Shown: one piece after another, positions 604-15,416 of the stretch
Position numbering within the stretch: the stretch's first letter is position 1
Layout of the letters: each line of letters begins with the position of its first letter
DNA from: a virus
Lineage: Duplodnaviria > Heunggongvirae > Uroviricota > Caudoviricetes
DNA length: 17,491 bases
Virus record (IMG/VR): IMGVR_UViG_3300029741_000087
Coordinates: 1 to 17,491 of that record
Reading direction: 5' to 3' (one strand)
Program-made: the position numbers and the translations under genes
The notes under the pieces: generated by a model
Seen by the model: the letters and a program-made list of their open reading frames with translations, nothing else
Databases searched by the model: none
What the model was told of the DNA's origin: nothing

Positions 604-926
604 CGGCATTACTGACACTGGAAGAGATCAAGGCACATCTGCGTGTCGACCATGACGCGGATGATGACATGCTGATGGACAAGGTTCGTCAGGCTACCGC
701 CGTGCTGCTGGCCTACATTCAGGGCAGCCGGGATAAGGTGATTCGTGAGGACGGTGAACTGATCCCGGGCGAGGCATTAACCCGGATGAAGGGGGCTGCC
801 ATGCGACTGACCGGGATGCTGTACCGGAATCCGGATCTTGCGGAGCGGGAAGAACTGCTTCAGGGGGAGCTGCCGTTTTCTGTTTCCGTGCTGATTTACG
901 ATTTGCGTTGTCCGACGGTGTTATGA
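600..926 (+). CDS. Head-tail connector protein, gp6-like
   Basis: 108 aa; N-terminus LTLEEIKAHLRVDHDADDDML matches the pattern I recall for the HK97 gp6 connector family (recalled, not searched). Start overlaps the upstream stop (ATGA), suggesting translational coupling. Confidence 0.7.
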   Translation: MTALLTLEEIKAHLRVDHDADDDMLMDKVRQATAVLLAYIQGSRDKVIREDGELIPGEALTRMKGAAMRLTGMLYRNPDLAEREELLQGELPFSVSVLIYDLRCPTVL

Positions 927-935
927 GGAGGGGGA

Positions 936-1286
936 ATGGCAATATCTGCAGGTCGTCTGACACAGATGATAAGTGTTCTGAACCCGGTGTTAACCCGTAA
1001 TGCTGCCGGAGAAATGACGGAAGAATGGGTGTCATGCGGGAAAATTCATGCGGATATCCGTGGCAGGAGCAGCCGGGAGCGGATGCAGTCCGGTGCGGAA
1101 ATGGCGCAGGCGGAAATCCGCATCTGGGTGCGCGGTCAGTCCGGTCGGGAAATCACGGCAGCGTCACGACTTCATGTGCTGAGTGGTCCATGGCGTGACC
1201 GGATCCTGAACGTTGTCGGGCTGCCCGTGCCGGATGCGACCGGCGGACGTCTGGAAATTCTCTGTCGGCTGGGAGGGGAAAAATGA
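936..1286 (+). CDS. Head-tail adaptor / head closure protein
   Basis: 116 aa ORF with a GAGGAGGGGG Shine-Dalgarno 6-14 nt upstream of the ATG. Size and position between the gp6-like and gp10-like genes fit a head closure protein. Assignment is by position and size, not by a recognised motif. Confidence 0.55.
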   Translation: MAISAGRLTQMISVLNPVLTRNAAGEMTEEWVSCGKIHADIRGRSSRERMQSGAEMAQAEIRIWVRGQSGREITAASRLHVLSGPWRDRILNVVGLPVPDATGGRLEILCRLGGEK

Positions 1287-1729
1287 TCGAAACCCTGCTG
1301 GATTTTTCGGGGCTGGAGGACATCAGCCGCGATTTGCAGCTTCTGAGTGGTACGGAAAACAACCGGGTGCTGCGTGAGGCAACCCGTGCGGGTGCGAATG
1401 TGCTGAAAGAAGAAGTGGTGTCACGGGCACCGGTGCGCAGGGGAAAACTGCGCCGCAATGTGGTGGTCCTTTCCCGGCGCTCCCGCGATGGCGGGATGGA
1501 ATCCGGTGTCCATATCCGTGGTGTTAATCCGGACACCGGTAACAGCGATAACACCATGAAGGTGGATAACCCGCGCAATGCTTTCTACTGGCGGTTTGTG
1601 GAAATGGGGACCGTGAATATGCCACCGCACCCGTTTGTGCGCCCGGCGTTTGATGTGCGCAGTGAACAGGCAGCGCAGGTGGCGATTGCTCGGATGAACC
1701 GGGCCATTGATGAGGTACTGAGACGATGA
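1283..1729 (+). CDS. HK97 gp10-family phage protein (neck / tail attachment)
   Basis: 148 aa; C-terminal NAFYWRFVEMGT...HPFVRPAFD resembles the conserved gp10-family motif (FLEFGT...PFLRPA) as I recall it. ATGA overlap with the upstream stop. Confidence 0.7.
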   Translation: MIETLLDFSGLEDISRDLQLLSGTENNRVLREATRAGANVLKEEVVSRAPVRRGKLRRNVVVLSRRSRDGGMESGVHIRGVNPDTGNSDNTMKVDNPRNAFYWRFVEMGTVNMPPHPFVRPAFDVRSEQAAQVAIARMNRAIDEVLRR

Positions 1730-2070
1730 CGGAGGCGGATTTGTATCCTCATCTGGCGCATCTTGCCGGCGGGCAGGTGTACCCGTATGTGGTCCCCCTG
1801 CTGGATGGCAGGCCGTCGGTAGCGCTTCCGTGGGTGGTTTTCAGCCTGATTTCATCGGTGTCTGCGGACGTGATGGGCGGGCAGGCGGAGTCCTCAGTGG
1901 CGGTGCAGATAGACGTTTATGCCGGGACTGTGACGCAGGCGCGTCAGATACGTCAGGACGCCCGTGAAGCCATAATGCTGCTGGCCCCGGGATCCGTCAG
2001 TGAAATGCAGGACTATATTCCGGAAAACCGCTGTTACCGTGCAACCCTGGAGTTTCAGGTCACGGTGTGA
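1726..2070 (+). CDS. Tail completion / tail terminator-like protein
   Basis: 114 aa; ATGA overlap with the gp10-like gene; lies immediately upstream of the major tail protein gene. Assignment is positional. Confidence 0.5.
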   Translation: MTEADLYPHLAHLAGGQVYPYVVPLLDGRPSVALPWVVFSLISSVSADVMGGQAESSVAVQIDVYAGTVTQARQIRQDAREAIMLLAPGSVSEMQDYIPENRCYRATLEFQVTV

Positions 2071-2098
2071 CTTTTTCTTTTTTCTACAAAACCCATAC

Positions 2099-2119
2099 CC
2101 CGCCGCGTGCGGGTTTTTT
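2099..2119 (+). terminator. Short GC stem-loop followed by a T-run, upstream of the major tail protein gene (possible attenuator)
   Basis: cccgc (2099-2103) pairs with gcggg (2109-2113), 5-nt loop, then tttttt at 2114-2119. Stem is only 5 bp. Confidence 0.3.
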
Positions 2120-2136
2120 ATTATCAGGAGGCAGAA

Positions 2137-2852
2137 TGTCTGCTTTGTATGAACGCTCACAGCTGACGCAGGTGATGATTTCATCTGCCCCGGCGACTGC
2201 TGAAACTATGGATAAGGCGGAATATCTGCGCCTGGACTGCACCATCAAGGAAGTCCAGTTCACCGCCGGTCAGAAACAGGATATTGATGTGACCACGCTC
2301 TGCTCCACAGAGCAGGAGAATATCAACGGTCTGGGGGCGTCGTCTGAGATTTCCATGTCGGGTAATTTTTATCTGAATCAGGCCCAGAACGCCCTGCGTG
2401 ATGCCTATGACAATGACGCGTTGTATGCGTTTAAGGTGCTGTTTCCGTCCGGTAAGGGCTTTAAATTCCTGGCGGAAGTGCGCCAGCACACCTGGTCATC
2501 CGGTACCAACGGCGTGGTGGCTGCAACGTTCTCACTGCGTCTGAAAGGCAAACCGGTGTCCTTTGTGGTACCGCTGGCGTTTGTGAAAAATCTGGATAAG
2601 ACACTTACCGTGAATACCGGTGCGCTGCTGACAATGTCAGTCAGTGCCAACGGGGGAACGCCGCCGTATAAATACGCCTGGAAGAAGGATGGTCAGCCGG
2701 TTGACGGGCAGACGACAGACACCTTCAGTAAGCCAGGTGCGCAGTCCGCCGATGCGGGGAAATATACCTGCGTGGTGACCGATTCGGCAGAGAAAGCACA
2801 GAGTGTGACGTCTGTTGAATGCACCGTGACAGTGAGCGCAGCCGCCGGATAA
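2137..2852 (+). CDS. Major tail (tube) protein with C-terminal Ig-like domain
   Basis: ATG at 2137 is preceded by AGGAGG at 2125-2130; the track's 2067 GTG start has no Shine-Dalgarno and runs through the hairpin. The C-terminal ~80 aa (PPYKYAWKKDGQPVDG...GKYTCVVTD) is a classic Ig-like fold signature, as found on lambda V-type tail proteins. Position is upstream of the G/GT chaperones. Confidence 0.75.
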
Positions 2853-2866
2853 GGGGATGGGTCATC

Positions 2867-3241
2867 ATGAAAAAGGATCTGAAAACGCTGGCGCTGGCCA
2901 GACTGTCAGGGTTTCGTCATAAAACGGTGAAGGTGCCGGAATGGGGTAATGTCAGCGTGGTGCTGCGGGAGCCTTCGGCAGAGGCCTGGTATCTGTGGCA
3001 GGACGTGCTCAATGGTGATGGAGAGGATGACGATACTCTGTCGGTGGTGGCGAAAACCCGCCGTAACCTGGAAGCGGATGTGACGCTGTTCTGCGATGTC
3101 CTGTGTGATACGGATCTGCAACGGGTGTTCACTCCGGACGACCGTGAGCAGGTGCTGGCCGTCTATGGTCCGGTACATGCCCGCTTGCTGCGTCAGGCAC
3201 TGGAACTGATCGCTGATGCAGAGTCGGTCAGAAAAAAGTAG
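2867..3241 (+). CDS. Tail assembly chaperone (lambda G analogue)
   Basis: ATG at 2867 preceded by AAGGGGA at 2851-2857. About 124 aa, acidic. Sits between the major tail protein and the tape measure, and ends in a slippery heptamer. The track's 2819 start is an upstream extension. Confidence 0.65.
   Translation: MKKDLKTLALARLSGFRHKTVKVPEWGNVSVVLREPSAEAWYLWQDVLNGDGEDDDTLSVVAKTRRNLEADVTLFCDVLCDTDLQRVFTPDDREQVLAVYGPVHARLLRQALELIADAESVRKK
3232..3238 (+). promoter_or_regulatory. Programmed -1 ribosomal frameshift site (A AAA AAG) at the end of the G-like ORF
   Basis: In the G frame the last codons are AGA AAA AAG TAG, so X XXY YYZ is A AAA AAG (3232-3238). The -1 frame is open from 3232 through the ATG at 3265 to the stop at 3544-3546. 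Confidence 0.6.
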
Positions 3242-3546
3242 CCCGCCCGGAAATTCGCTTTCTGATGCGACTTGCGCTCCGTCTGGGGCGCACCTTATCC
3301 GAACTGCGGCACAGCCTGAGTGCGAGCGAGGCGATGATGTGGATGGAGTTCGACAGGATATCCCCGCTGGGTGATGAGCGCGGGGATATCCGTAATGCAC
3401 AGATCGTGAAAGCGGTTTTCGGGGCACAGGGGATGAATGTTGCACTGAAGGACGCCATGCTCTGCTGGGGCGAGGATGAGGATAAGCCGGAGGTGGATCC
3501 GTTTGCGGCGCTGGAAGACGCGCTGAGCCTTGCAGCACAGTCATGA
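3232..3546 (+). CDS. T-like extension of the tail assembly chaperone, expressed as a G-T fusion by -1 frameshift
   Basis: ORF 3265..3546 lies in the -1 frame relative to G and is open back to the slippery site. This G/GT arrangement upstream of the tape measure is conserved in long-tailed phages (established knowledge). Confidence 0.55.
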   Translation, partial: KKVARPEIRFLMRLALRLGRTLSELRHSLSASEAMMWMEFDRISPLGDERGDIRNAQIVKAVFGAQGMNVALKDAMLCWGEDEDKPEVDPFAALEDALSLAAQS

Positions 3547-3554
3547 ATGATGAG

Positions 3555-3575
3555 AACCGCTGAGGCGGTTTTTTT
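3555..3575 (+). terminator. Weak hairpin plus T-run between GT and the tape measure gene (possible attenuator)
   Basis: aaccgc (3555-3560), loop tgag, gcggtt (3565-3570), with T-run 3569-3575; 19 nt upstream of the H start. Confidence 0.3.
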
Positions 3576-3593
3576 ACGCCAGGAGAAAGGTGA

Positions 3594-6500
3594 ATGGCGA
3601 CGTTACGTGAACTGATTATCAAAATTTCGGCAAATTCACAGTCATTCCAGTCGGAGATCCAGCGGGCGTCCCGTATGGGCAGTGAATATTACCGGACCCT
3701 GCAGAATGGCGGACGTCAGGCTGCTGCGGCAGCCAGGGAGCAGTGCCGGGCTCTGGCTGAGCTGAACAGCCAGTTGACGGAAATCCGCGCTTCGGCTGTC
3801 GGAATGACCAGTGCGTTTGCCGGTGCCTTTGCCACCGGACACCTGATTTCGCTGGCAGATGAATGGAGCTCCGTGAATGCCCGTCTGAAACAGGCGTCGC
3901 AGTCATCGGATGAATTTGCGTTATCACAGAAAGTGCTGATGGACATCAGCCAGCGGACAGGCACCGCATTTTCGGATAATGCGACCCTGTTTGCCCGTTC
4001 GGCTGCCTCGATGCGTGAATATGGTTACAGTGCTGATGATGTGCTGAAGGTGACGGAGGCCATTTCGACAGGGCTGAAAATTTCCGGTGCCAGTGCGGCA
4101 GAGGCGGGTTCGGTGATCACCCAGTTCAGCCAGGCGCTGGCACAGGGGGTGTTGCGCGGCGAGGAATTTAATTCGGTCAATGAAAGTGGGGACCGGATCA
4201 TTCGCGCACTGGCTGCAGGCATGGGCGTGGCCCGTAAGGATCTGAAGGCGATGGCGGACGATGGTCAACTGACGGCGGATAAAGTCGTTCCCGCGTTAAT
4301 CAGCCAGCTGGGGATATTGCGTGATGAATATGCAGCCATGCCGGAAACGGTGTCTGACGGGATCACGAAGGTGGAAAACGCCTTTATGGCCTGGGTGGGC
4401 GGCGCGAATGAGGCCAGCGGAGCGACGAAAACGCTCTCCGGCGCACTGAACGGTGTGGCCGGAAATATTGATACCGTGGCAACAGCTGCGGGTGTGCTGG
4501 TTGCTGTCGGGGTGGCCCGGTACTTTGGTAATCTGGCTTCCGGAGCGATGTCTGCCACGGCAGGACTTGTGACCGCTGCACGTAATGAAGTGGCACTGGC
4601 TGAGGCCCAGTTAAGGGGAACGCAGATTGCCACGGCGCGGGCAAGGGCAGCCGTGTACCGGGCTCAGCAGGCTGTGGCGGCAGCCCGCGGGACTGAGATG
4701 CAGATTGCGGCAGAGGCCCGTCTGGCGGTCACACAGGAACGCCTGAACAGAAATATTGCTGCCAGAACCGCCGCCCAGAATGCGCTGAACAGTACAACGG
4801 CGGTGGGCTCACGTCTGATGAGCGGTGCGCTGGGACTGGTTGGAGGCGTACCCGGACTGGTGATGCTGGGAGCTGCCGCATGGTACACGCTGTACCAGAA
4901 TCAGGAGCAGGCCAGGGAGTCTGCGCGCCAGTATGCACTGACGATTGATGAAATCGCGCATAAAACGCCATCAATGTCTCTGCCTGAAGCCTCAGATAAT
5001 GAAGGGCGAACACGGGAGGCGCTGACAGAGCAGAACCGGCTGATTGATGAGCAGGCCAGCCGGGTGAAATCCCTGCAGGAAAAAATCGCCGGGTATCAGT
5101 ATGTGCTGGCTAATCCGGGCTGGACGACCGGTAACGGCTTCATGATAAACCATCTGACATCGGTGAAAACTGTAACGGAAGAGCTTGCTCAGGCAACAGA
5201 GCAGTTTGCTGTTGAGCAGTCCCGTCTGGCACAGATGCAGGAAAAAGCGCAGTCCATTCAGGATGTGCTTGCCGGACTGGAAGAGCGCCGTGTTGTGTTA
5301 ATTCGTCAGCAGGCAGCAGAGCAGAATAAAGCGTATCAGTCACTGCTGGTCATGAACGGTCAGCATACGGAATTCAACCGCCTGCTGGGGCTGGGTAATG
5401 AACTGCTGCAACAGCGTCAGGGACTGGCGAGTGTACCGCTGCGACTGCCACAGGCCACTCTGGATGATAAACAGCAGAGCGCCCTGAATAACACAGAGCG
5501 TCAACTGGCCCTGTCCCGGCTGAAAGGGGAAGAAAAAGAGCGTGCCCGGCTGGGGTATGCGGCGGATGACCTTGGTCTGGTGGGGGATACGTATCAGGAG
5601 GCGAGGCAGCGTTACATCCGTAATTCGATGGAAGCCTGGCGCAATAATGAGGCGAATAAACCCAAATCCCGGGCCGGAAAATCAGGGGCGGAAAAAGCGG
5701 AAGACAGTTTTTCCCGTCTGCTGAAGCAGCAGAAGGAACAACTGGCACTGGCCGGGAAGAATACAGAACTGGCAAAACTGAAATACCAGACCTCGCAGGG
5801 CGAGCTGAAAACCCTGACGGAGATACAGAAGCAGGAGCTGCTGCGCAATGCTGCCCTGATTGACCAGAAGAAAATCCGGGAGCAGTTACGGGCCCGGGAG
5901 GAGACCCTGAAAAATGATAATGCAGACGCAAGGGCATCAAATGACGCTGAGCTGCTGGGGTACGGGCAGGGTGAGCGGGTCCGTGAACGGATGCGGGAGC
6001 TGCAGCAGATTCGTGACGGCTACCGCCAGAAGGATGCGGACCTGCAGTCTCAGTATCAGACAGGGGATATCAGTGAGGATTTTTACAGACAGGCGCTGGC
6101 GCAGAATGCGCAGTATCTGAGTGAACGCCTTAAAGACCAGGAGGCTTTTTATGCCGAATCGGATGCGCAGCGTGCTGACTGGCAGAAAGGGCTGCAGGAA
6201 GGGCTAAGTAACTGGGTGGACAGCGCATCAGATTACGCTTCACAGGCAGCACAGCTTGCGACAGACGGTATCTCAGGGATGGTGAATAACATCACGGAGA
6301 TGCTGAACGGAAATAAAGTGGAATGGCGCAGCTGGGCTGCATCAATCCTGCAGGAAATATCAAAAGTTCTTATGAATGCGGCCATTGTCAACGGCATTAA
6401 GATGGCGGCAAACAGTATGTCCGGTGCAGGAGGATTTTTCGGCAGTATAGGCAACTGGCTGGGTGGCGCGGTGGCAAATGCAAAAGGCGGCGTTTATACC

Positions 6501-6836
6501 TCGGCAAACCTGAGTGCATACAGTAACAGTATTGTGGACACGCCCACGTACTTTGCCTTTGCAAAAGGGGCAGGGCTGATGGGGGAGGCCGGACCTGAAG
6601 CCATCATGCCCCTGACCCGGGCAGCGGATGGTTCACTCGGCGTGCGTGCGGTGGGCAGTATGAACGGCAGTGCGGGTCTGGTGTATTCCCCGGTGTACCA
6701 CATCGCCATTCAGAATGACGGCGCTAACGGGCAGATAGGGCCGGAAGCGGCGGGCACCCTTGTGCAACTGATTGACCAGCGGGTACAGGCGGTGATGTTA
6801 TCCATGCGTCGTGACGGAGGAATGCTGAGTGGATGA
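3594..6836 (+). CDS. H: Tail tape measure protein
   Basis: 1080 aa, Ala/Gln-rich, predicted coiled-coil-like, with a hydrophobic Gly-rich segment. C-terminus (QNDGANGQIGPEAAG...RRDGGMLSG) resembles the lambda H C-terminus as I recall it (NNDGTNGQIGPAAL...RDGGLFSG). Shine-Dalgarno AGGAGAAAGG upstream. Confidence 0.9.
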   Translation: MATLRELIIKISANSQSFQSEIQRASRMGSEYYRTLQNGGRQAAAAAREQCRALAELNSQLTEIRASAVGMTSAFAGAFATGHLISLADEWSSVNARLKQASQSSDEFALSQKVLMDISQRTGTAFSDNATLFARSAASMREYGYSADDVLKVTEAISTGLKISGASAAEAGSVITQFSQALAQGVLRGEEFNSVNESGDRIIRALAAGMGVARKDLKAMADDGQLTADKVVPALISQLGILRDEYAAMPETVSDGITKVENAFMAWVGGANEASGATKTLSGALNGVAGNIDTVATAAGVLVAVGVARYFGNLASGAMSATAGLVTAARNEVALAEAQLRGTQIATARARAAVYRAQQAVAAARGTEMQIAAEARLAVTQERLNRNIAARTAAQNALNSTTAVGSRLMSGALGLVGGVPGLVMLGAAAWYTLYQNQEQARESARQYALTIDEIAHKTPSMSLPEASDNEGRTREALTEQNRLIDEQASRVKSLQEKIAGYQYVLANPGWTTGNGFMINHLTSVKTVTEELAQATEQFAVEQSRLAQMQEKAQSIQDVLAGLEERRVVLIRQQAAEQNKAYQSLLVMNGQHTEFNRLLGLGNELLQQRQGLASVPLRLPQATLDDKQQSALNNTERQLALSRLKGEEKERARLGYAADDLGLVGDTYQEARQRYIRNSMEAWRNNEANKPKSRAGKSGAEKAEDSFSRLLKQQKEQLALAGKNTELAKLKYQTSQGELKTLTEIQKQELLRNAALIDQKKIREQLRAREETLKNDNADARASNDAELLGYGQGERVRERMRELQQIRDGYRQKDADLQSQYQTGDISEDFYRQALAQNAQYLSERLKDQEAFYAESDAQRADWQKGLQEGLSNWVDSASDYASQAAQLATDGISGMVNNITEMLNGNKVEWRSWAASILQEISKVLMNAAIVNGIKMAANSMSGAGGFFGSIGNWLGGAVANAKGGVYTSANLSAYSNSIVDTPTYFAFAKGAGLMGEAGPEAIMPLTRAADGSLGVRAVGSMNGSAGLVYSPVYHIAIQNDGANGQIGPEAAGTLVQLIDQRVQAVMLSMRRDGGMLSG

Positions 6837-7170
6837 GATTAAGACTCTTCACTGGTGTCCCCGGGAAGGGATGCAGGTGACGGAGAAACCGTCGGTGATG
6901 ACGGTGAAGTTTGGCGACGGTTATCAGCAGCGTCGTCCGGCAGGACTGAATGCGCAACTGAAGACCTTTCAGGTGGTTTTTCGGGTGACAACGGATGCTG
7001 AGCGGGAGGCACTGTCCGCGTTTCTGTCATGGCATGGTGGTTACCGGGCTTTTTTGTGGAAGCCCCCGAAACATAACCGGACGGTCAGGGTGGTGTGCCG
7101 GGAGTGGAGTATTACGGATAACGCCCGGTACAGTGATTTCAGTTGCACGATAGAGCAGGTAGTTAGATGA
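6829..7170 (+). CDS. M: Minor tail protein M
   Basis: 113 aa; KFGDGYQQRRPAGLNAQLKTF...HGGYRAFLWKPP...EQVV aligns closely with lambda M (RFGDGYSQRAPAGLNANLKTY...HGGWKSFLWTPP...EQVV) from memory. GTG start overlaps the H stop. Confidence 0.9.
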   Translation: MDEIKTLHWCPREGMQVTEKPSVMTVKFGDGYQQRRPAGLNAQLKTFQVVFRVTTDAEREALSAFLSWHGGYRAFLWKPPKHNRTVRVVCREWSITDNARYSDFSCTIEQVVR

Positions 7171-7255
7171 GAATTATCCTATAAATCATTCTTTAGTGTT
7201 TAGTTGTTAATTATTTTTAATCTGTCTTGTCAGAAAGTGCGAAATCGATCTTGCA

Positions 7256-7275
7256 TTTACATTTTGTTACATAAT
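7256..7275 (+). promoter_or_regulatory. OmpR-box-like sequence in the porin upstream region
   Basis: TTTACATTTTGTTACATAAT resembles the ompF F1 (TTTACTTTTGGTTACATATT) and ompC C1 (TTTACATTTTGAAACATCTA) OmpR sites as I recall them. Lies about 95-115 bp upstream of the porin ATG in a very AT-rich tract (7171-7368). Confidence 0.4.
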
Positions 7276-7368
7276 ATAAATTGAACTAAGAATTTGTATT
7301 AAAATATTTTAATTTTTGTTCATGACATCTGAATGCATGAATAGTTCAGTTTAAATAAGGATTAAATC

Positions 7369-8523
7369 ATGAAAAAAATGACAGTGGCACTTTCTGCTGT
7401 AGCAGTGGCAGTGATGTTTGCTGCGGGGGCGCAGGCAGCAGAAGTTTATAATAAAGATGGTAATAAACTGGATCTTTACGGGCGTGCAACCGCTCTGCAT
7501 TACTTCTCGGATGATAAAGGTAATGACGGAGACCAGACTTATGCTCGTCTCGGCTTTAAAGGCGAAACGCAGATTAATGATCAACTGACCGGATTTGGTC
7601 AGTGGGAATACCAGTTCTCTGGTAATAAAACGGAATCTGAAGGTTCCGCGGGAAATAAAACCCGTCTGGCATTTGCAGGTCTGAGATTTGCAGATGTTGG
7701 TACCATTGATTACGGACGTAACTATGGTATTGCTTACGATGTCGGATCATATACTGACGTACTGCCTGAGTTTGGTGGTGATGGCTGGACGCAGACCGAT
7801 AACTTTATGACGGCCCGAACTTCCGGTGTCCTGACTTACCGTAATACAGACTTCTTCGGACTGGTTGATGGTCTGAATTTTGCGGCGCAGTATCAGGGCA
7901 AAAATGAGCGTGATGACCTTCAGAAGGCTAATGGCGACGGGTATGGTTTCTCGGCCAGCTATGAGTTTGATGGTTTTGGTTTTGTCGCTGCGTATACCAA
8001 GTCAGATCGTACTGATAAGCAGGTTCAGGGGTTGAATGGTACTGCAGATGTTCTTGATCCTGCATCAGGTAAAAAGGTTGGAGAAAAAGCAGTTGACTCA
8101 GGTAGTGTGGCAAAAGGTAAACATGCTGAATTCTGGGGAACTGGTCTTAAATATGATGCCAATAACCTGTATCTGGCAGCAGTGTATTCTGAAACCCAGA
8201 ATATGACGACCTTTGGTGATCAAGGTGTTGCGGATAAAGCTCAGAATATCGAAGCCGTTGTTCAGTATCAGTTTGATTTTGGTCTGCGCCCGTCCCTTGC
8301 CTACCTTCAGTCCCGCGGACAGGATGTTATGGTTGGTGGTGTGAACCATGGCGATCAGGATCTGGTTAAATATATTGATGTCGGTGCGACTTATTACTTT
8401 AACAAGAATATGTCCACCTATGTTGATTATAAAATTAACCTGATTGATGAAAGTGAATTTACCCGGAAAGCCGGTGTTGCGACAGATAATATCGTTGCTG
8501 TGGGTATGACTTATCAGTTCTGA
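7369..8523 (+). CDS. General outer-membrane porin, OmpC/OmpF/PhoE family (phage moron)
   Basis: 384 aa. Cleavable signal peptide [23 protein letters not shown] followed by [15 protein letters not shown]; C-terminal ...VAVGMTYQF with terminal Phe, typical of beta-barrel porins. AAGGA Shine-Dalgarno before the ATG. The gene and its flanks are markedly AT-richer than neighbouring tail genes. Confidence 0.9.
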
Positions 8524-8545
8524 TTATTGCTGATAAGTTAATAAA

Positions 8546-8601
8546 TACGGGCCGTCTGCCCTTACAGGCGGCCTGTATCAATGAAAACACAGTTTTCATT
8601 G
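8546..8601 (+). repeat. Two adjacent stem-loops downstream of the porin stop
   Basis: Hairpin 1: 8546-8577 (tacgggccgtctg / caggcggcctgta, one G-U pair, 6-nt loop). Hairpin 2: perfect 10-bp inverted repeat caatgaaaac / gttttcattg at 8579-8601 with a 3-nt loop. Neither is followed by a U-tract. Confidence 0.4.
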
Positions 8602-8695
8602 GTCACTGCGATCAGCAATTGCCATCTGGCATGTGCTGATTTAACTTTCTGTTATTACCTTTATTGGTTTTATTTTAAATTGGACTTTTATTGTT

Positions 8696-8720
8696 CGGGG
8701 CGCGTCTGCGCCCCTTTTTT
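8696..8720 (+). terminator. Intrinsic terminator closing the porin moron, abutting the L start
   Basis: ggggcgc (8697-8703), loop gtct, gcgcccc (8708-8714), then tttttt at 8715-8720. Confidence 0.7.
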
Positions 8721-8732
8721 ATGGGCGGATAT

Positions 8733-9431
8733 ATGCAGGATATTCACGAAGAAAGCCTGAACGAGTCGGTTAAGTCAGAGCAGTCACCGCGGGTGGTGCT
8801 CTGGGAAATCGACCTGACGGTGCAGGGCGGTGAGCGGTATTTTTTCTGCAATGAGCTGAATGAAAAAGGGGAGCCGGTGACCTGGCAGGGGCGTGAATAT
8901 CAGGCGTACCCGATTGAGGGCAGCGGCTTTGAGATGAACGGAAAGGGCAGCAGTGCCCGCCCGTCGCTGACGGTGTCCAATCTTTTCGGCCTTGTCACCG
9001 GGATGGCGGAGGATTTGCAGAGCCTGGTGGGTGCCACGGTGGTCCGCCGCCGGGTGTATGCGCGTTTTCTTGATGCGGTGAACTTTGTGGCGGGGAATCC
9101 GGAGGCAGACCCGGAGCAGGAGCTGACGGACCGGTGGGTGGTGGAGCAGTTATCAGCGCTGACGGCCATGACGGCCTCGTTTGTGCTGGCGACACCGACG
9201 GAGACGGACGGGGCGCTGTTTCCCGGTCGCATCATGCTGGCGAACACCTGTATGTGGGATTACCGGGGCGATGAGTGCGGGTATAACGGTCCGGCAGTGG
9301 CGGATGAGTTCGACAACCCTACCACGGATATCCGGAAGGACAGATGCAGTAAATGCATGCGCGGGTGTGAGATGCGCGGCATGGCGGTCAATTTTGGCGG
9401 TTTCCTTTCCATCAATAAACTTTCGCAGTAA
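8733..9431 (+). CDS. L: Minor tail protein L
   Basis: Starting at ATG 8733 the protein MQDIHEESLNE...VVLWEIDL...GERYFFCNE...GEPVTWQGREYQ...FGGFLSINKLSQ is near-colinear with lambda L as I recall it (MQDIRQETLNE...FGGFLSINKLSQ). The track's 8691 start is an upstream extension through the terminator. Confidence 0.9.
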   Translation: MQDIHEESLNESVKSEQSPRVVLWEIDLTVQGGERYFFCNELNEKGEPVTWQGREYQAYPIEGSGFEMNGKGSSARPSLTVSNLFGLVTGMAEDLQSLVGATVVRRRVYARFLDAVNFVAGNPEADPEQELTDRWVVEQLSALTAMTASFVLATPTETDGALFPGRIMLANTCMWDYRGDECGYNGPAVADEFDNPTTDIRKDRCSKCMRGCEMRGMAVNFGGFLSINKLSQ

Positions 9432-9441
9432 ATCCCGGTTT

Positions 9442-10185
9442 ATGACACAGACTGAATCAGCGATTCTGGTGCATGCCCGGCGGTGTGCGCCAGCGGAGTC
9501 GTGCGGCTTCGTGATAAGCACCCCGGAGGGCGAACGGTACCAGCCCTGCGTGAATATCTCCGCAGAGCCGGAGGCGTATTTTCGTATTACACCGGAAGAC
9601 TGGCTGCAGGCACAGATGCAGGGGGAGATTGTGGCGCTGGTCCACAGTCATCCCGGTGGTCTGCCCTGGCTGAGCGAGGCGGACCGGCGGCTGCAGATAA
9701 AGAGTGCCCTGCCCTGGTGGCTGGTCTGCCGGGGTGAAATTCACCGGTTCCGCTGTGTGCCGCACCTGACCGGACGGCGCTTTGAACACGGTGTGACGGA
9801 CTGTTACACCCTGTTCCGGGATGCATACCATCTGGCGGGGATAACGCTGCCGGATTTTGTGCGTGAGGATGACTGGTGGCGCAACGGTCAGAACCTGTAC
9901 CTGGACAACCTGGCAGACAACGGCTTTTACCGGGTGTCTCCGTCCTGTGCACAGGCGGGCGATATCCTGCTGTGCTGCTTTGGTTCATCGGTGCCGAATC
10001 ATGCCGCCATTTACTGTGGCAACGGTGAACTGCTTCACCATATACCTGAACAACTGAGTAAACGGGAGAGGTATTCAGAGAAATGGCAACGACGAACGCA
10101 TTCTGTCTGGCGTCACCGCCACTGGTCCGCATCTGCCTTCACGGGGATTTACAACGATTTGGTCGCCGCATCAGCCTGTATGTGA
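9442..10185 (+). CDS. K: Tail assembly protein K (JAMM/MPN plus NlpC/P60 domains)
   Basis: Starts MTQTESAIL as in lambda K. JAMM motif HSHPGGLPWLSEAD (HxHx7Sx2D) and an NlpC/P60-like Cys/His pair (DCYTL, NHAAIY). The track's 9181 start overlaps L and is rejected. Confidence 0.9.
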   Translation: MTQTESAILVHARRCAPAESCGFVISTPEGERYQPCVNISAEPEAYFRITPEDWLQAQMQGEIVALVHSHPGGLPWLSEADRRLQIKSALPWWLVCRGEIHRFRCVPHLTGRRFEHGVTDCYTLFRDAYHLAGITLPDFVREDDWWRNGQNLYLDNLADNGFYRVSPSCAQAGDILLCCFGSSVPNHAAIYCGNGELLHHIPEQLSKRERYSEKWQRRTHSVWRHRHWSASAFTGIYNDLVAASACM

Positions 10186-10763
10186 ACACGGCAGCGGAGG
10201 CCATCCGTGCCCTGTCGCTGCAGGTGCCGGGATTCCGCGGTCAGATGAACGAAGGCTGGTATCAGATACGTATTGCCGGTGAGGATACCGCACCGGAGGC
10301 GGTGTACGCCCGTCTTCACGAACAACTGGGTGAGGGAGCGGTCATCCACATTGTGCCGCGACTGGCCGGAGCCGGGGGAAATGGTGTTTTTCAGGTGGTG
10401 CTGGGGGTTGCAGCGATTGTCGGGTCATTTTTCACTGGTGGTGCAACACTGGCGGCATGGGGCGCAGCCCTGAGTGCCGGAGGGCTGACTGCCACCACGA
10501 TGCTGTTCTCACTGGGTGCCAGCATGATACTGGGTGGTGTGGCTCAGATGCTGGCCCCGAAGGCAAAGACGCCGGAGTATAAAAGTACGGATAACGGTAA
10601 ACAGAACACGTATTTTTCGTCACTGGACAACATGATTGCCCAGGGTAACCCGATGCCGGTGCCTTACGGTGAAATGCTGGTTGGTTCACGACGGATATCC
10701 CAGGATATCAGCACCCGTGATGAGGGCGGAGACGGGAAAGTGGTGGTTATCGGACGGGGATAA
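10083..10763 (+). CDS. I: Tail assembly protein I
   Basis: MATTNAFCLASPPLVRICLHGDLQRFGRRI...NGKQNTYFSSLDNM...VVVIGRG aligns with lambda I (MAATHTLPLASPGMARICLYGDLQRFGRRI...VVVIGR) from memory. Overlaps the 3' end of K. Confidence 0.9.
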   Translation: MATTNAFCLASPPLVRICLHGDLQRFGRRISLYVNTAAEAIRALSLQVPGFRGQMNEGWYQIRIAGEDTAPEAVYARLHEQLGEGAVIHIVPRLAGAGGNGVFQVVLGVAAIVGSFFTGGATLAAWGAALSAGGLTATTMLFSLGASMILGGVAQMLAPKAKTPEYKSTDNGKQNTYFSSLDNMIAQGNPMPVPYGEMLVGSRRISQDISTRDEGGDGKVVVIGRG

Positions 10764-10866
10764 AAATAAAAAAATCCCGCAGAGTTAGCGGAGCTGCGGG
10801 AAGAGATACGAAGATTAACTGTAAGGAGTTATTATTATGTCACAGCAAAAAAAACGGTAACGCAGA
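10764..10866 (-). ncRNA. Candidate small RNA, cassette 1 (predicted from promoter and terminator; not a known family by sequence)
   Basis: Minus strand: TTCACA (10897-10892), 16-bp spacer, TATAAT (10875-10870), predicted start near 10864 at conserved GCGUUACC. Intrinsic terminator: hairpin 10800-10776 then U7 (10774-10768). No plausible ORF. Contains AACUCCUUACA. Confidence 0.5.
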
Positions 10867-10896
10867 GAAATTATAAGCGCCACTGGGATTTTGTGA

Positions 10897-10918
10897 AAAT
10901 GTGAAGAATTTCAGAAAT
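10897..10918. promoter_or_regulatory. CRP-like box (TGTGA-N6-TCAGA), cassette 1
   Basis: AAATGTGAagaattTCAGAaat; left half matches the CRP consensus AAATGTGA exactly, right half is TCAGA versus TCACA. Centre is about 43 bp upstream of the predicted minus-strand start. Confidence 0.45.
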
Positions 10919-10996
10919 TTTTTGCTGCAGAGGTGCAGGGAGCTTGCCGGGTATCTGTGGCAGAAGACAGAAAACATCATGCCGGGGTTAAGGGAT

Positions 10997-11096
10997 AAAA
11001 AAATCCCGCAGAGTCCGGAGACTGCGGGACAGAACCGATGAAGATTAACGTTCAAGGAGTTTTGTTTTTATTGACCCGAAAAAACTGTAACGCCCC
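10997..11096 (-). ncRNA. Candidate small RNA, cassette 2
   Basis: Minus strand: -10-like TATCAT (11105-11100), start near 11094 at conserved GCGUUACAG, terminator hairpin 11028-11005 then U7 (11003-10997). Contains AACUCCUUGAA. The -35 is poor. Confidence 0.4.
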
Positions 11097-11126
11097 GGAA
11101 TGATATCTGCCACGGGAACGTACAGA

Positions 11127-11148
11127 AAATGTGAAGAAATTCAGACTT
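11127..11148. promoter_or_regulatory. CRP-like box, cassette 2
   Basis: AAATGTGAagaaatTCAGActt; same spacing to the -10 hexamer and conserved GCGTTAC as in cassette 1. Confidence 0.4.
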
Positions 11149-11230
11149 TTTCTGTCGCAGGTTTACAGAACGGATGACCGCCAGGGTACCAGTGGCGTAA
11201 ATGAGCAGGATGTTGTGGTGTGGCTGAAGC

Positions 11231-11336
11231 AAAAAAATCTCCCGTAATATCGCCGGATACTGACGGGAGACGAATAGTCACCTTAAGGAGGTCTGATAAT
11301 TATTGCTTTTATTGAGCAAAAAAACTGTAACGCTGC
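11231..11336 (-). ncRNA. Candidate small RNA, cassette 3
   Basis: Minus strand: TATAAT (11345-11340), start near 11334 at conserved GCGUUACAG, terminator with perfect 8-bp stem (11271-11264 / 11245-11238) then U7 (11237-11231). Contains GACCUCCUUAAGG. Confidence 0.5.
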
Positions 11337-11366
11337 GTCATTATAGTGGCTACAGGCAATTGCCGG

Positions 11367-11388
11367 AAATGTGAAGAATTTCAGAAAT
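11367..11388. promoter_or_regulatory. CRP-like box, cassette 3
   Basis: AAATGTGAagaattTCAGAaat; same spacing to the TATAAT at 11345-11340 as in cassette 1. Confidence 0.45.
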
Positions 11389-11404
11389 TTTATTCCGTCA
11401 TGAC

Positions 11405-11436
11405 ACAGGCACCCTCCGGGGTGCCTGTCGTTTTCT
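11405..11436 (+). terminator. Plus-strand intrinsic terminator about 40 nt upstream of the J start
   Basis: Perfect 10-bp stem acaggcaccc (11405-11414) / gggtgcctgt (11419-11428), loop tccg, followed by cgttttct. Confidence 0.5.
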
Positions 11437-11478
11437 GGCATAAACAGATTCAGACATCAGACAGGAGAGGGGGACAGA

Positions 11479-14400
11479 GTGGGTAAAGGGGGCGGCAAGG
11501 GGCACACACCGCGTGAGGCGAAGGACAATCTCAAATCCACGCAGATGATGAGCGTGATTGATGCCATTGGTGAGGGACCGGTGGAAGGTCCGGTGAAGGG
11601 ACTGCAGAGTATTCTGGTGAACAAAACCCCGCTGACGGACACGGACGGTAATCCCGTGATACACGGTGTGACCGCCGTCTGGCGTGCCGGGGAGCAGGAG
11701 CAGACACCGCCGGAAGGCTTTGAGTCCTCCGGGGCAGAAACCGCACTGGGCGTGGAGGTGACGAAGGCAAAGCCGGTGACGCGCACCATCACGTCAGCGA
11801 ACATTGACCGTCTGCGGGTCACCTTCGGGGTACAGTCACTGGTGGAGACCACCTCAAAGGGTGACCGTAATCCCTCTTCTGTCCGCCTGCTGATTCAGCT
11901 TGAGCGTAACGGGCACTGGGTGACGGAGAAGGATGTCACCATTAACGGCAAGACCACCTCGCAGTACCTGACGTCGGTGATTCTGAATAATCTCCCTGAG
12001 CGCCCCTTTAACATCCGGATGGTCAGGGTGACGGCGGACAGCACCACGGACCAGCTGCAGAACAGAACGCTGTGGTCGTCATACACCGAAATCATCGATG
12101 TGAAACAGTGCTACCCGAACACGGCGATTGTGGGGCTGCAGGTGGATGCGGAGCAGTTTGGTGGCCAGCAGCTGACGGTGAACTACCATATCCGTGGTCG
12201 CATCATTCAGGTGCCGTCAAACTATGACCCGGAAAAACGCACCTACAGCGGTATCTGGGACGGGAGTCTGAAACCGGCATACAGCAATAACCCGGCCTGG
12301 TGCCTGTGGGACATGCTGACCCACCCGCGCTACGGCATGGGAAAACGCCTGGGGGCCCCGGACGTGGACAAGTGGGCACTGTATGCCATCGGGCAGTACT
12401 GTGACCAGACGGTCCCGGATGGTTTCGGGGGAACAGAGCCGCGGATGACTTTCAATGCGTACCTGTCACAGCAGCGTAAGGTGTGGGATGTCCTGGGGGA
12501 TTTCTGCTCGGCGATGCGCTGTATGCCGGTATGGAACGGCCAGACGCTGACGTTCGTTCAGGACCGTCCGTCGGATGTGGTGTGGCCGTACACCAACAGC
12601 GATGTGGTGGTGGATGATAACGGCGTGGGGTTCCGCTACAGCTTCAGTGCCCTGAAGGACCGGCACACGGCGGTGGAGGTGAATTACACCGACCCGCAGA
12701 ACGGCTGGCAGACCTCCACGGAACTGGTGGAAGACCCGGACGCCATCCTGCGCTACGGGCGCAATCTGCTGAAGATGGATGCGTTCGGCTGTACCAGCCG
12801 CGGTCAGGCCCACCGTGCCGGACTGTGGGTGATAAAGACAGAACTGCTGGAAACGCAGACGGTGGATTTCACGCTCGGGTCACAGGGGCTGCGGCACACG
12901 CCCGGTGACATCATTGAAATCTGTGATAACGACTACGCCGGGACCCTGACCGGTGGACGCATCCTGTCCATCGATGCCGCCAGCCGTACCCTGACGCTGG
13001 ACCGTGAGGTGATACTGCCGGAAGCAGGGACATCGACGGTGAACCTGATTAACGGCAGCGGTAAGCCGGTGCGCGTGGACATCACTGCACACCCCGCCCC
13101 TGACCGGATACAGGTCAGCGTCCTGCCTGATGGCGTGGAGACATACGGTGTGTGGGGACTCTCCCTGCCGTCACTGCGTCGTCGCCTGTTCCGCTGTGTT
13201 TCCATCCGGGAAAACACGGACGGCACCTTTGCCATCACGGCAGTGCAGCACGTACCGGAAAAAGAAGCCATCGTGGATAACGGGGCCACCTTTGAGCCGC
13301 TGTCCGGTTCACTGAACAGCGTCATCCCGCCGGCAGTGCAGCACCTCACGGTGGAGGTGAGTGCCTCAGACGGCCAGTATCTGGCGCTGGCGAAATGGGA
13401 CACGCCGCGGGTGGTGAAGGGCGTGCGCTTCAGTCTGCGCCTGACCAGTGGCAGTGGTGAAAACAGCCGCCTGGTGACCAGCGCTATCACTGCCGACACG
13501 GAGCACCGTTTCAGTGGCCTGCCGCCCGGGGAATACACCCTGACGGTCAGGGCGATAAACAGCTACGGCCAGCAGGGCGAACCTGCCACCACCACGTTCC
13601 GGATTAACGCACCGGCAGCACCGGCCAGCATTGAACTGACGCCGGGGTATTATCAGATAACGGCGGTCCCGCATCTTACGGTGTATGACCCGACGGTACA
13701 ATTTGAGTTCTGGTTTTCGGAGGCAAAAATCGCAGACACATCTCAGGTGGAAACCTCTGCCCGTTATCTGGGGACAGGCAGCCAGTGGAGTGTCTCCGGC
13801 CCGCACATTAAGCCGGGGAAGGATTTCTGGTTTTATGTGCGCAGCGTCAACCTGGTGGGGAAATCTGCGTTTGTGGAAGCCAGTGGCCGGGCCAGCAATG
13901 ATGCGGAAGGGTATCTGGGGCTGTTTCGGGAAAAGATAGGAAAACTGCATCTGGCACAGGGGATGTGGGAGCTGATTGATAACAGCCAGCTTGATGATGA
14001 GATGGCGGAGATGAAGACCACCATCACAGAAACCCGCAATGAAATCACGCAGACGGTCAGTAAAACCCTGGAAGACCAGAGCGCCACCATACAGCAGATA
14101 CAGCGGGTGCAGACAGACACAAATAACGACCTGGCTGCGCTGTACATGCTGAAGGTGCAGAAAACAAAAAACGGCATTCCGTATGTTGCCGGTATTGGTG
14201 CGGGGATTGAGGATGCTGATGGCCAGCCCCTGAGCAATATACTGCTGCAGGCGGACCGTATCGCGATGATTAACCCGGAGAACGGCAACACCACGCCGCT
14301 GTTTGTGGCGCAGGGGAATCAGCTGTTCATGAACGATGTGTTCCTGAAGCGACTGTTTGCGGTGAGCATCACCTCGTCCGGCAATCCCCCGACGTTCTCC

Positions 14401-14946
14401 CTGACGCCGGAGGGCAGGCTGACGGCCCGCAATGCGGACATCAGCGGACATATCAGTGCGAACTCGGGCACGCTGAATAATGTCGTGATAGCGGAGAACT
14501 GTACGATAAATGGCACGCTGAAAGCGGAGAACATTATTGGTGATCTTGTGAAATGTGCAGGGGTGGCTTTTCCGGTGGATGGTAGTTACCTTGCGAACGG
14601 TACACGAACGCTGACGGTGTATGACGATCACAGCTTTGACCGGCAGATTATAATCCCGCCGATAATCTATGTCGGGTCAAAACAGGAATCCCGCACCAGT
14701 AATGACATCTGGACAGAGTGCTTCCTGCATGTTGATCAGAACGGACGCCGGATTTATTCAGGCAGGTCAGTGACAGAGCCGGGAATTTTCAGCGGGATCA
14801 TCGATATGCCAGCCGGTCATGGTCATATCACCCTGAGTTTTACCGTAAGTTCACGACGTCAGAACGGGAGTTTTGGCAGTTCACGTATCAGTAACCTTCA
14901 GGCGATAGTGGTGAAGAAAAACAGCGCGGGGATCAGTATCCGCTGA
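11479..14946 (+). CDS. J: Host specificity / central tail fibre protein J
   Basis: 1155 aa from a GTG start. N-terminus [22 protein letters not shown] and long internal stretches (for example [35 protein letters not shown]) are near-identical to lambda J as I recall it. The C-terminal ~150 aa are more divergent. Confidence 0.95.
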
Positions 14947-15144
14947 ACATCGCGCCCCGGGATTGCCGGAAGGAGACAAAAACCGTACAGTATGCGCGGG
15001 TGCCTTTGGCTGATGGCCGGAGGGAACACCTGAAGGCCGGATGTGAAAAGGCCCCGGACAAACATTCATGTTTAACCCGAGGCCTGACCATTCATCCTAA
15101 GCAAGTGAAAGGTTAGCGCCTCTCCGTAAAAGGAGCAAGCGTTT

Positions 15145-15285
15145 ATGTCGCAAAAACCGTTAAAAACCACCGTGATTTGTATCACGGTAGTGCTCATTAT
15201 CTGGATCACCCACACTTCACTGTGCGAGTTCCGGTTCCGGATAGCGGGCGCGGAGATTGCGGCGTTCTTACAGTGTAAGCAGTAA
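15145..15285 (+). CDS. Hok/Gef-family type I toxin (small membrane peptide); not in the ORF track because it is shorter than 60 aa
   Basis: 46 aa: MSQKPLKTTVICITVVLIIWITHTSLCEFRFRIAGAEIAAFLQCKQ. One transmembrane stretch followed by SLCEFRFR...EIAAF, matching the Hok signature (Hok of plasmid R1: ...[23 protein letters not shown]) from memory. AGGAG at 15131-15135, 9 nt before the ATG. Confidence 0.7.
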   Translation: MSQKPLKTTVICITVVLIIWITHTSLCEFRFRIAGAEIAAFLQCKQ

Positions 15286-15293
15286 GAAACCGT

Positions 15294-15316
15294 GGCGGGG
15301 GAGAATATCCCCCGCC
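15294..15316 (+). other. Perfect 8-bp GC stem-loop immediately after the hok-like stop
   Basis: ggcggggg (15294-15301) / cccccgcc (15309-15316) with a 7-nt loop and no U-tract; could be an mRNA 3' structural element. Confidence 0.4.
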
Positions 15317-15380
15317 GACCGGTTGCTGAGGGTGGTCAGCCGGATGGCACCGTTTTAACACCAACAAACCACAAATATTA

Positions 15381-15416
15381 CCGCAGGCCGGGAAACCGGT
15401 CCTGCGGTTTTTTTAT
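15381..15416 (+). terminator. Intrinsic terminator between the hok-like gene and stf
   Basis: ccgcaggccgg / ccggtcctgcgg stem with one mismatch, GAAA tetraloop, then T-run 15408-15416. Confidence 0.7.

Follow-up and report, generated by a model that had tools for sequence, protein, structure and literature searches.

The closest described relatives of the system studied here are the general porins encoded by lambdoid prophages, Lc of phage PA-2 and NmpC of the cryptic prophage DLP12, together with the IpeX RNA, for which an origin from the porin transcript and repression of OmpC and OmpF have been reported. The same logic, whereby one porin is expressed and others are silenced, is followed by the chromosomal antisense RNAs MicF and MicC, each of which is encoded beside one porin gene and represses another. 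Here, we describe a 1,562-bp insert that separates tail genes M and L in a stretch of viral DNA of 17,491 nucleotides (nt) (IMG/VR record IMGVR_UViG_3300029741_000087, positions 1 to 17,491; hereafter the window) and that contains a porin gene followed by a structured 3' untranslated region (3'UTR). No published description of a porin gene between M and L was found in a literature search of incomplete coverage, and an earlier description is possible.

We consider it probable that the insert is a self-contained moron of lambdoid prophages that replaces host porins, of the same kind as Lc/NmpC-IpeX, with a new insertion site and orientation. The concept and the architecture of the 3'UTR are already known from Lc/NmpC-IpeX, whereas the porin lineage, the insertion site, the strand, the surface loop L5 and the upstream region differ. 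The M-L porin is only about 69% to 74% identical to Lc and NmpC, its L5 loop is much longer and varies in a cassette-like manner, the upstream region is unrelated except for an OmpR-like box, and the sequence of the 3'UTR is too diverged to be detected by blastn.

An insert between tail genes M and L

The window covers the late region of a lambdoid prophage, with head-tail joining genes, V, G/T, H, M, L, K, I, J and a side tail fiber gene, and part of it showed 100% identity to a prophage that Escherichia coli N51 carries at the ompW site. The insert is delimited by the following features.

6829-7170, + strand: tail gene M (minor tail protein), left flank; Pfam Phage_min_tail, E = 3.2e-33
7171-8732: insert of 1,562 bp
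8723-8729, + strand: new Shine-Dalgarno (SD)-like sequence GGGCGGA, putatively serving L
8733-9431, + strand: tail gene L, right flank; Pfam Phage_tail_L, E = 1e-92

The M and L genes were contiguous in all 151 related phage records, in which 637 bp corresponded to 2,200 bp of the query, and the insert was found in none (0 of 151) of these deposited records. The initial annotation had described M and L as neighbors in lambda and had placed about 1.56 kb of DNA of lower guanine-plus-cytosine (GC) content between them, at positions 7171-8732. Both the coordinates and the composition were borne out. The GC content was 0.55 to 0.59 in the M, L and H genes; inside the insert, the 198 bp upstream of the porin gene had a value of 0.23, the porin coding sequence 0.453 and the 3' region 0.41. 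A coding sequence with a GC content of 0.453 is not unusual among the porin genes of enterobacteria (0.506 for ompC, 0.478 for ompF, 0.466 for ompN and 0.440 for nmpC). By its AT-richness, the insert stands out as foreign within the tail operon, but this is no sign of an exotic origin, which was ruled out because the GC content fits that of other enterobacterial porin genes.

The junctions were mapped by alignment with BP-4795. The right boundary coincided exactly with the ATG start codon of the L gene (8733), and the left boundary was placed at approximately 7160-7170, within the final codons of the M gene, the C-terminal codons of which have changed from VVN-stop in the relatives that lack the porin to VVR-stop. 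The ancestral TGATG overlap, formed by the M stop codon and the L start codon, has been lost and replaced by the insert. The right end of the insert supplies the GGGCGGA sequence, which may substitute for this overlap as a ribosome-binding site for L, and the motif GG(C/T)GGA near the L start was kept in most of the 3'UTR variants.

When viewed against the definition of morons in the sense of Hendrix and Juhala (PMC8065619), the insert was found to consist of extra DNA that separates 2 genes which are neighbors in related phages, to differ in composition from its neighbors (GC content of 0.23 to 0.45 vs. 0.55 to 0.59) and to have its own terminator (stem at 8697-8714 followed by T6); for a promoter of its own, there was a conserved box of the OmpR type with weak -35/-10 candidates, and a consensus scan of the region gave no + strand promoter. 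The lambdoid tail-operon morons likewise consist of extra DNA of lower GC content within the late genes, with their own terminator and an apparent regulatory region, and late transcription passes across them in the lytic cycle. The insert differs from the gene 15 moron of HK97, which lies between T and H and presumably encodes a small inner-membrane exclusion protein, both in its site between M and L and in its cargo of a porin with a putative regulatory RNA.

A porin closest to the NmpC/Lc/OmpD group

7369-8523, + strand: porin gene, 384 amino acids, OmpC/OmpF/PhoE superfamily (Pfam Porin_1), with a single terminal stop codon
7369-7437, + strand: signal peptide, codons 1-23, ending in AQA; the mature protein starts with AEVYNK

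Residues 29-384 of the porin covered the entire Porin_1 profile (PF00267, positions 1-337 of 337) with E = 5.9e-144, and residue 24 aligned with the first residue of the mature chain in solved OmpC structures, in agreement with the complete porin and signal peptide of the initial annotation. The motif PEFGGD of the constriction loop L3 was located at residues 133-138, and the protein ended in TYQF, with the terminal aromatic residue of the beta-signal. Strong homology was seen to solved 16-strand porins, and an AlphaFold2 (AF2) model contained 16 strands; its mean predicted local distance difference test (pLDDT) score was only 58, due to a shallow alignment, and this low-confidence model was used solely for the order of the strands. 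Judged by its sequence, the encoded protein is a general diffusion porin of the OmpC/OmpF/PhoE type.

The porin was 65% identical to OmpC of strain K-12, 62% to OmpF and 65% to OmpN. The identity to NmpC was 74% of the aligned positions in a global alignment and 69% by tblastn, and BLAST searches gave 68% to 70% for the NmpC/Lc/OmpD group, which by these comparisons is the closest one. This placement agrees with the earlier comparison of the protein to the lysogenic-conversion porins Lc and NmpC. At a threshold of at least 80% identity, the M-L porins formed a separate clade.

In RefSeq, the protein is labeled "porin OmpC", and it did pass the cutoff of the NCBIfam subfamily model of that name (507.7 vs. 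484 bits). We read the label as a match to a subfamily model and not as an indication of orthology. An OmpC ortholog was rejected as an explanation since the gene is located in a prophage tail operon and not at the chromosomal ompC locus beside micF and rcsD, and since the protein, at 65% identity to OmpC, is nearer to NmpC. The 2 proteins belong to the same superfamily and agree exactly in the mature N-terminus and the L3 motif, and part of the OmpR C1 box is identical between the 2 genes. The M-L porin differs in being encoded by an extra gene in genomes that retain their own ompC leader, in its inferred leader of about 20 nt or less, as compared with what we take to be about 81 nt for ompC, and in having a 3'UTR that is predicted to repress ompC.

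A conserved RNA structure downstream of the porin gene

8524-8732, + strand: conserved IpeX-like 3'UTR RNA element of 209 nt, from 15 aligned unique variants, a consensus fold and a covariance model
8547-8576, + strand: hairpin 1, 12 bp, starting 23 nt past the stop codon; compensatory changes in 5 of 12 pairs, 99.4% of cells paired
8577-8603, + strand: hairpin 2, 12 bp, abutting hairpin 1; compensatory changes in 5 of 12 pairs
8610-8641, + strand: hairpin 3, 7 bp, with a loop that varies in length by an indel of 10-13 nt; compensatory changes in 2 pairs
8640-8671, + strand: single-stranded seed UUUAACUUUCUGUUAUUACCUUUAUUGGUUUU, from duplex predictions against the ompC leader and the ompF SD region
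8697-8720, + strand: intrinsic terminator with a 7-bp all-GC stem (8697-8714), a 4-nt loop and T6 (8715-8720), invariant in 15 variants

In the consensus fold of the 15 unique variants, 3 hairpins were followed by about 55 nt of unpaired sequence and then by the terminator. Over the 38 base pairs tested, 98.9% of the cells were paired and 12 pairs showed compensatory changes; none of 500 shuffles reached the observed pairing values, and in controls with slid partners only about 40% of the cells were paired. Thus, the 3'UTR is a conserved structured RNA and more than a terminator. Hairpin 1 does not represent an intrinsic terminator, since no U-tract follows its stem. The unpaired stretch contained the invariant core UUAUUACCUU of the seed at positions 8652-8661. 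The intrinsic terminator ended 12 nt upstream of the L start codon, which confirms the terminator that had been proposed at the start of L.

A covariance model inferred from the 3'UTRs at the M-L site gave hits in 5 of 5 nmpC loci, each located exactly downstream of the gene, with scores of 30-32 bits and E-values of approximately 1e-4 in searches over 113-172 kb and 6e-6 in the 7-kb locus alone. All 4 helices were in register between the model and the region downstream of nmpC, which is ipeX. The 3'UTR of Lc/NmpC-IpeX shows the same arrangement of 3 hairpins, a single-stranded seed and a GGGGCG...CGCCCC terminator, and it shares the motif CUUCUGUUAU...UACC(C)UUUAUU with the M-L 3'UTRs. The model also matched the 3'UTRs of 2 other orphan relatives, with E-values of 2e-16 and 7e-10, and gave no match downstream of the chromosomal OmpD/NmpC-like genes of Enterobacter, Citrobacter and Salmonella.

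Among the features of an Hfq-type base-pairing small RNA derived from a 3'UTR, the element has a U-tailed rho-independent terminator at its 3' end and a conserved unstructured seed with predicted complementarity to the start of a target, with strong evidence in the case of ompC and moderate evidence in that of ompF. For the 2 abutting hairpins, we also considered a put-like antiterminator RNA, as in HK022. This idea was set aside, as such an RNA would let transcription pass the terminator in the lysogen, and the hairpins are explained better by the parallel to IpeX.

Predicted pairing of the seed with host porin mRNAs

The duplex calculations were restricted to the seed and the start region of each mRNA, as folding of the full-length UTR with the mRNA gave meaningless long-range structures. 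The predicted duplexes were as follows.

Window seed (8640-8671) with ompC leader, -35 to -4: -26.7 kcal/mol
Window seed with ompF SD region, -23 to -3: -20.3 kcal/mol
Window seed with the start region of the porin gene itself: -11.5 kcal/mol
Window seed with ompN: -10.7 kcal/mol
Seed type B with ompC: -23.8 kcal/mol
Seed type B with ompF: -18.9 kcal/mol
DLP12 IpeX seed with ompC, same site: -26.7 kcal/mol
MicC nt 1-37 with ompC: -22.5 kcal/mol

The predicted duplex of the window seed with ompC comprised 15 bp over AUAACAGAGGGUUAA, which includes the SD sequence, and 8-9 bp over AAAUAAAGG. The value of -26.7 kcal/mol was reached by 10 of 36,638 genomic windows of 55 nt, the moron's own antisense being among them, and by 2 of 5,000 seed shuffles; the strongest duplex of the window seed with any of 46 annotated start regions in K-12 was -18.7 kcal/mol. 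In other alleles, a different seed, here called type B, is predicted to pair with ompC over the SD sequence, the AUG and codons 2-4, and with ompF at the SD sequence; the predicted pairing with ompC is conserved across the alleles. In the Citrobacter copy, the seed differed by 1 base. The target itself is nearly invariant, with at least 99% identity in the ompC leader in 5,359 of 5,426 E. coli genomes.

The predicted ompC site overlaps the region that is complementary to the 5' end of MicC, and the seeds also resemble this 5' end (GUUAUAUGCCUUUAUUG). A similarity to MicF was seen in both seed types, with 21 of 25 matching positions for type A (MicF nt 11-35) and 26 of 32 for type B (nt 11-40), a score that was reached by 1 of 1,000 shuffles. 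The M-L element differs from MicF and MicC in that the RNA is the 3'UTR of a porin mRNA, whereas those RNAs are transcribed from divergent genes of their own; its hairpins are arranged differently, Rfam gave no match and the covariance model reached micF only at E-values of about 1. The half of the model that contains the seed and the terminator gave weak matches to micF of K-12 (locus L099, 2096-2168) and to a probable micF of Lelliottia (locus L126, 1101-1174), at 13-15 bits and E-values of 0.3-1.4, which singly are not significant and which both agree with a MicF-like seed.

In DLP12, the IpeX seed CUUCUGUUAUAUAUUACCCUUUAUUU (locus L002, 2358-2534, - strand) formed 15 + 9 bp with the K-12 ompC leader (locus L099), at the site complementary to the 5' end of MicC, and its duplex energy was reached by none of the 36,638 background windows. 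The prediction implies that IpeX itself may act through an extensive duplex (15 + 9 bp) with the ompC leader, formed at the MicC site. According to a review, the action of IpeX does not depend on complementarity alone.

The porin could also be the only functional cargo, with a 3' region that stabilizes and terminates the transcript and insulates the tail genes, and with an incidental complementarity to ompC and ompF, in which case a porin would be added and no host porin repressed. The terminator is indeed the most invariant part of the 3' region, hairpins located right after stop codons are generally known to stabilize mRNAs, the pairing with ompF is not outstanding and nothing in the insert matched Rfam. 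However, the single-stranded stretch is conserved and includes an invariant 10-mer while the stems vary with compensation, the ompC duplex lies far beyond both the genomic and the shuffle backgrounds, the seed resembles the target-binding part of MicF to a degree seen in 1 of 1,000 shuffles, and the seed of IpeX, an RNA reported to repress OmpC and OmpF, targets the same ompC site. We therefore consider a porin-only function unlikely.

The region upstream of the porin gene

7171-7368, + strand: upstream regulatory region of the moron, 198 bp, defined by its composition (GC content 0.23) and by conserved blocks in 17 unique variants
7250-7275, + strand: OmpR-box-like element, matching the K-12 ompC and ompF promoters and kept in 17 of 17 variants
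7316-7345, + strand: candidate weak promoter, with -35-like TTGTTC (7316-7321) or ATGACA (7322-7327) and -10-like AATAGT (7340-7345)
7357-7361, + strand: SD sequence AAGGA of the porin gene, conserved across variants

The initial annotation had assigned the porin gene its own AT-rich upstream region, which stands, and to which we add a conserved element that resembles an OmpR box. The 17-mer CTTGCATTTACATTTTG (7250-7266) was identical to the C1 region of K-12 ompC, and the 20-mer TTTACATTTTGTTACATAAT (7256-7275) matched F1 of ompF at 17 of 20 positions and C1 of ompC at 15 of 20; based on the established regulation of these genes, we take the sites in ompC and ompF to be the OmpR boxes C1 and F1. 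In the alignment of the 17 unique variants, the strongest conserved upstream block was TTTACATTTTG(TT/AA)ACA. The pattern of the box occurred only once in the window and in none of 200 shuffles.

The candidate promoter begins 60 bp past the start of the box, corresponding to three 20-bp units, much like in ompC. Any transcription start in this candidate region implies a predicted 5'UTR of about 20 nt or less for the porin mRNA. Dependence of the moron promoter on OmpR is a reasoned inference from the box and its position. Direct alignment to the region upstream of nmpC gave no convincing similarity.

Distribution and evolution of the M-L porins

Megablast searches identified the full insert in 109 of 5,426 complete E. 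coli genomes (about 2%) and its 3' noncoding part in 111 of them (120 places), where it was never annotated in RefSeq. Many of the carriers were Shiga-toxin (Stx)-producing strains of human or bovine origin. In IMG/VR, the arrangement M-porin-L on one strand was seen in all 29 loci with a porin of at least 84% identity, whereas all 51 loci at 69% identity were of the NmpC/Lc type, with the porin gene located antisense between Q and the holin gene. The order M-porin-L on one strand was also found for 4 more divergent alleles, in 4 RefSeq prophages and in 1 Citrobacter copy, from Citrobacter farmeri. The divergent alleles (81% to 91% identical) were located in tail modules with other tape-measure families. 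The flanking M proteins of the M-porin-L loci were 47% to 100% identical, with 47% to 49% for those of the divergent alleles. The insert has thus held the site between M and L, on the strand of the late operon, while the porin and the tail genes have both diverged for a long time.

A porin relative of 79% identity that adjoins IS66 or is located in plasmid-like DNA has kept the same 3'UTR, and a remnant of the L gene was present in one such locus; for these reasons, its location fits with descent from the M-L site. More broadly, porin relatives outside of tail operons (P0018 in loci L012 and L013, P0027 in L014 and P0025 in L017) retained the 3'UTR element, with E-values of 1e-37 to 7e-10, from which it follows that the porin and the RNA move together as a unit. 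The neighbors of these orphan relatives were IS66 or plasmid-like genes, a CdiI immunity gene or, upstream, an alkaline phosphatase gene. No relative of more than 68% identity was found in 185,579 species-representative genomes, and the OmpD/NmpC-like genes of Enterobacter, Citrobacter and Salmonella, which lack the 3'UTR element, were rejected as chromosomal donors. The porin represents a phage-borne lineage for which no recent chromosomal donor is evident.

All 37 copies of the M-L porin gene (24 of them unique) were intact. Premature stop codons in other copies had been named at the outset as a sign that the gene is a recent host-derived fragment without function; none was found, so that this check did not refute the initial reading. 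The ratio of nonsynonymous to synonymous substitution rates (dN/dS) outside L5 was 0.03 to 0.08, with dS values of up to 1-2. The low ratios and the intactness of all copies argue for strong purifying selection on the porin. The situation was different in the surface loop L5.

8008-8124, + strand: region of surface loop L5, residues 214-252, from the alignment gap to 3UPG, the protein alignment and the strand order of the low-confidence AF2 model

This loop was about 16 residues longer than in OmpC of Salmonella Typhi (3UPG), and the indels and substitutions among the alleles were mainly found in L5 and L6. For L5, dN/dS was 0.3 to 0.7 in most of the allele comparisons and 0.08 to 0.17 in a few. 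In one allele, dS was 0.90 in L5 and 0.115 in the rest of the gene, and therefore the loop has been exchanged by recombination in this allele.

These patterns bear on the idea that the insert is a neutral or decaying passenger, that is, a host porin gene caught by illegitimate recombination and hitchhiking with the phage. Porin genes are abundant in the hosts and the RefSeq label is just "porin OmpC". Nevertheless, the selection analysis contradicts this idea, with no copy disrupted and low dN/dS values at saturating dS, the noncoding elements are conserved with covariation, a chromosomal donor above 68% identity is lacking among the species-representative genomes and the same site is filled in tail modules in which M is only 47% identical. 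A passenger origin is thus very improbable.

Another explanation is that the module serves the lytic cycle, in that its main expression, by late read-through, would remodel the envelope, for example by removing the receptor porins, to which progeny would otherwise be lost on debris, or by blocking superinfection in the latent period. The insert shares the strand of the tail genes in every copy, as opposed to the antisense Lc/NmpC-type porins, and in lambda the Q-modified polymerase reads through terminators. As the insert is located in sense orientation within the tail operon, late transcription must traverse the moron to reach L-J, so that the read-through postulated in the initial annotation is required by the orientation of the insert. 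Against a primarily lytic role stand the separate regulatory region, the conserved box of the OmpR type and the strong terminator, which are features expected of expression in the prophage state, as well as the turnover of the outer membrane, which is generally slow in relation to the latent period, the diversity of the J receptor-binding domains and the intact porin in prophages with internal stop codons or frameshifts in the tail genes. We regard such a role as improbable, more so than a porin-only function.

The intact porin genes beside broken tail genes were observed in 2 prophages (locus L186, 2579-5821, and locus L187, 1-5787), the tape measure gene and other tail genes of which were annotated with an internal stop codon or frameshifts. 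This may reflect domestication of the cassette or, in L187, assembly errors.

Other features of the tail region

3594-6836: tape measure gene H, in the late operon
3508-3575: weak isrK-like match (23.7 bits, E = 0.17)
10764-11478: unannotated gap of about 715 bp between I and J, GC content 0.39 to 0.49
14998-15156: sok-like antisense RNA (Rfam RF01794, 55 bits, gathering score 59, E = 4.6e-10)

The isrK-like match is located between the tail assembly gene T and the tape measure gene H, which is presumably the position of the gene 15 moron in HK97; a strong terminator hairpin, AACCGC..GCGGTTTTTTT, forms its end. The gap between I and J contained 3 tandem copies of a unit of 230-240 bp that were 63% to 70% identical to each other. 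Each repeat contained a hairpin, AAAAAATCCCGCAG...CTGCGGGA, which would form a minus-strand terminator, as well as AAGGAG and the conserved sequence GAAAATGTGAAGAATTTCAGAAATTTT. The repeats had no match in Rfam, and they could be small genes or small RNA genes. The sok-like RNA was found with a hok-family toxin gene (Hok/Gef, annotated directly past J in locus L001, 28049-28189) between J and the side tail fiber gene, and the hok/sok-like pair would amount to a second moron-like insertion among the tail genes.

Discussion

We propose the following scenario for a porin-replacement moron of the Lc/NmpC-IpeX kind. In the lysogen, a weak promoter downstream of the OmpR-type box would transcribe a porin mRNA with a very short leader, and the terminator would keep the transcript of the moron out of L-K-I-J. 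The 3'UTR would act either whole or processed, as reported for IpeX, with the MicF/MicC-like seed pairing with the ribosome-binding region of the ompC mRNA, and probably of the ompF mRNA, to block translation. The start region of the phage porin, without such complementarity, would be spared. As a result, the outer membrane would gain a phage porin with a long and variable L5 loop and lose OmpC, and possibly OmpF, which may alter the susceptibility to agents that dock on these porins, such as other phages, colicins and contact-dependent inhibition (CDI) systems, and perhaps also the permeability. During lytic growth, Q-modified late transcription would pass the terminator, and the porin and the RNA would be made late as well.

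A number of observations weigh against this scenario. There was no Rfam match at E ≤ 1 within 7171-8732, with MicC (RF00121) and MicF included in the scan, and the E-values of the covariance model are rough. The spacing from the box to the -10 element is 4 bp off the layout in ompC, and the sigma-70 consensus scan identified no + strand promoter with at least 9 of 12 matches in the upstream region. The duplex energies leave out accessibility and Hfq. The ompF value of the window seed was matched by 0.7% of the genomic windows and is thereby moderately unusual, while that of seed type B is within the range of ordinary start regions; pairing of the window seed with ompF is suggestive only. Finally, the J receptor-binding domains of 5 carriers were 33% to 98% identical, although their porins were 85% to 97% identical.

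The last observation concerns the benefit of the porin. In the window, J is encoded by the following gene.

11479-14946: tail gene J

The 193 C-terminal residues of its product were 98% identical to those of Stx phage 1720a-02 and about 51% identical to those of lambda J. A receptor could not be inferred from J, as no close phage with a known receptor was available. Because the J receptor domains of the carriers are diverse, the logic of PA-2, in which the phage removes its own receptor, cannot be general, and a strict link between the porin and the receptor specificity of the phage itself was rejected. OmpC and OmpF are major routes of entry for antibiotics, and many phages, colicins and contact-dependent toxins dock on them. 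An advantage for the host would fit better, in the form of resistance to phages that use OmpC or OmpF, colicins or contact-dependent toxins, or of a changed permeability. We favor a host benefit because the logic of PA-2 is not general and because the porin is intact where the tail genes are broken, with the reservation that some of the frameshifts may be assembly errors.

In an extended version of the porin-replacement scenario, which we offer tentatively, the insert would be a portable "porin-swap" cassette, consisting of a porin and an anti-porin RNA, that is a phage-borne mimic of the MicF/MicC logic and that includes OmpR control, silencing of OmpC, an arms race in L5 and firing in the lytic cycle. 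Control by OmpR would tie the cassette to the same signals as the host porins. Since the target leader is invariant, silencing of OmpC, and partly of OmpF, would be expected across nearly all E. coli. The long L5 loop, swapped as a cassette among alleles, would fit with an arms race with phages, colicins and CDI systems that dock on porin loops, and the sense orientation in the tail operon would cause the cassette to fire in lytic growth as well.

If the porin-replacement scenario is correct, the insert would represent a second, independent case of a phage that pairs a porin with an anti-porin RNA, and the clear predicted site of the seed makes the unsettled mechanism of IpeX directly testable. 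For the carriers, the protein profile of the outer membrane would be mispredicted from the core genome alone, and drug permeability and surface antigenicity would possibly be mispredicted as well. The same would apply to their susceptibility to phages and colicins, which bears on phage therapy and typing.

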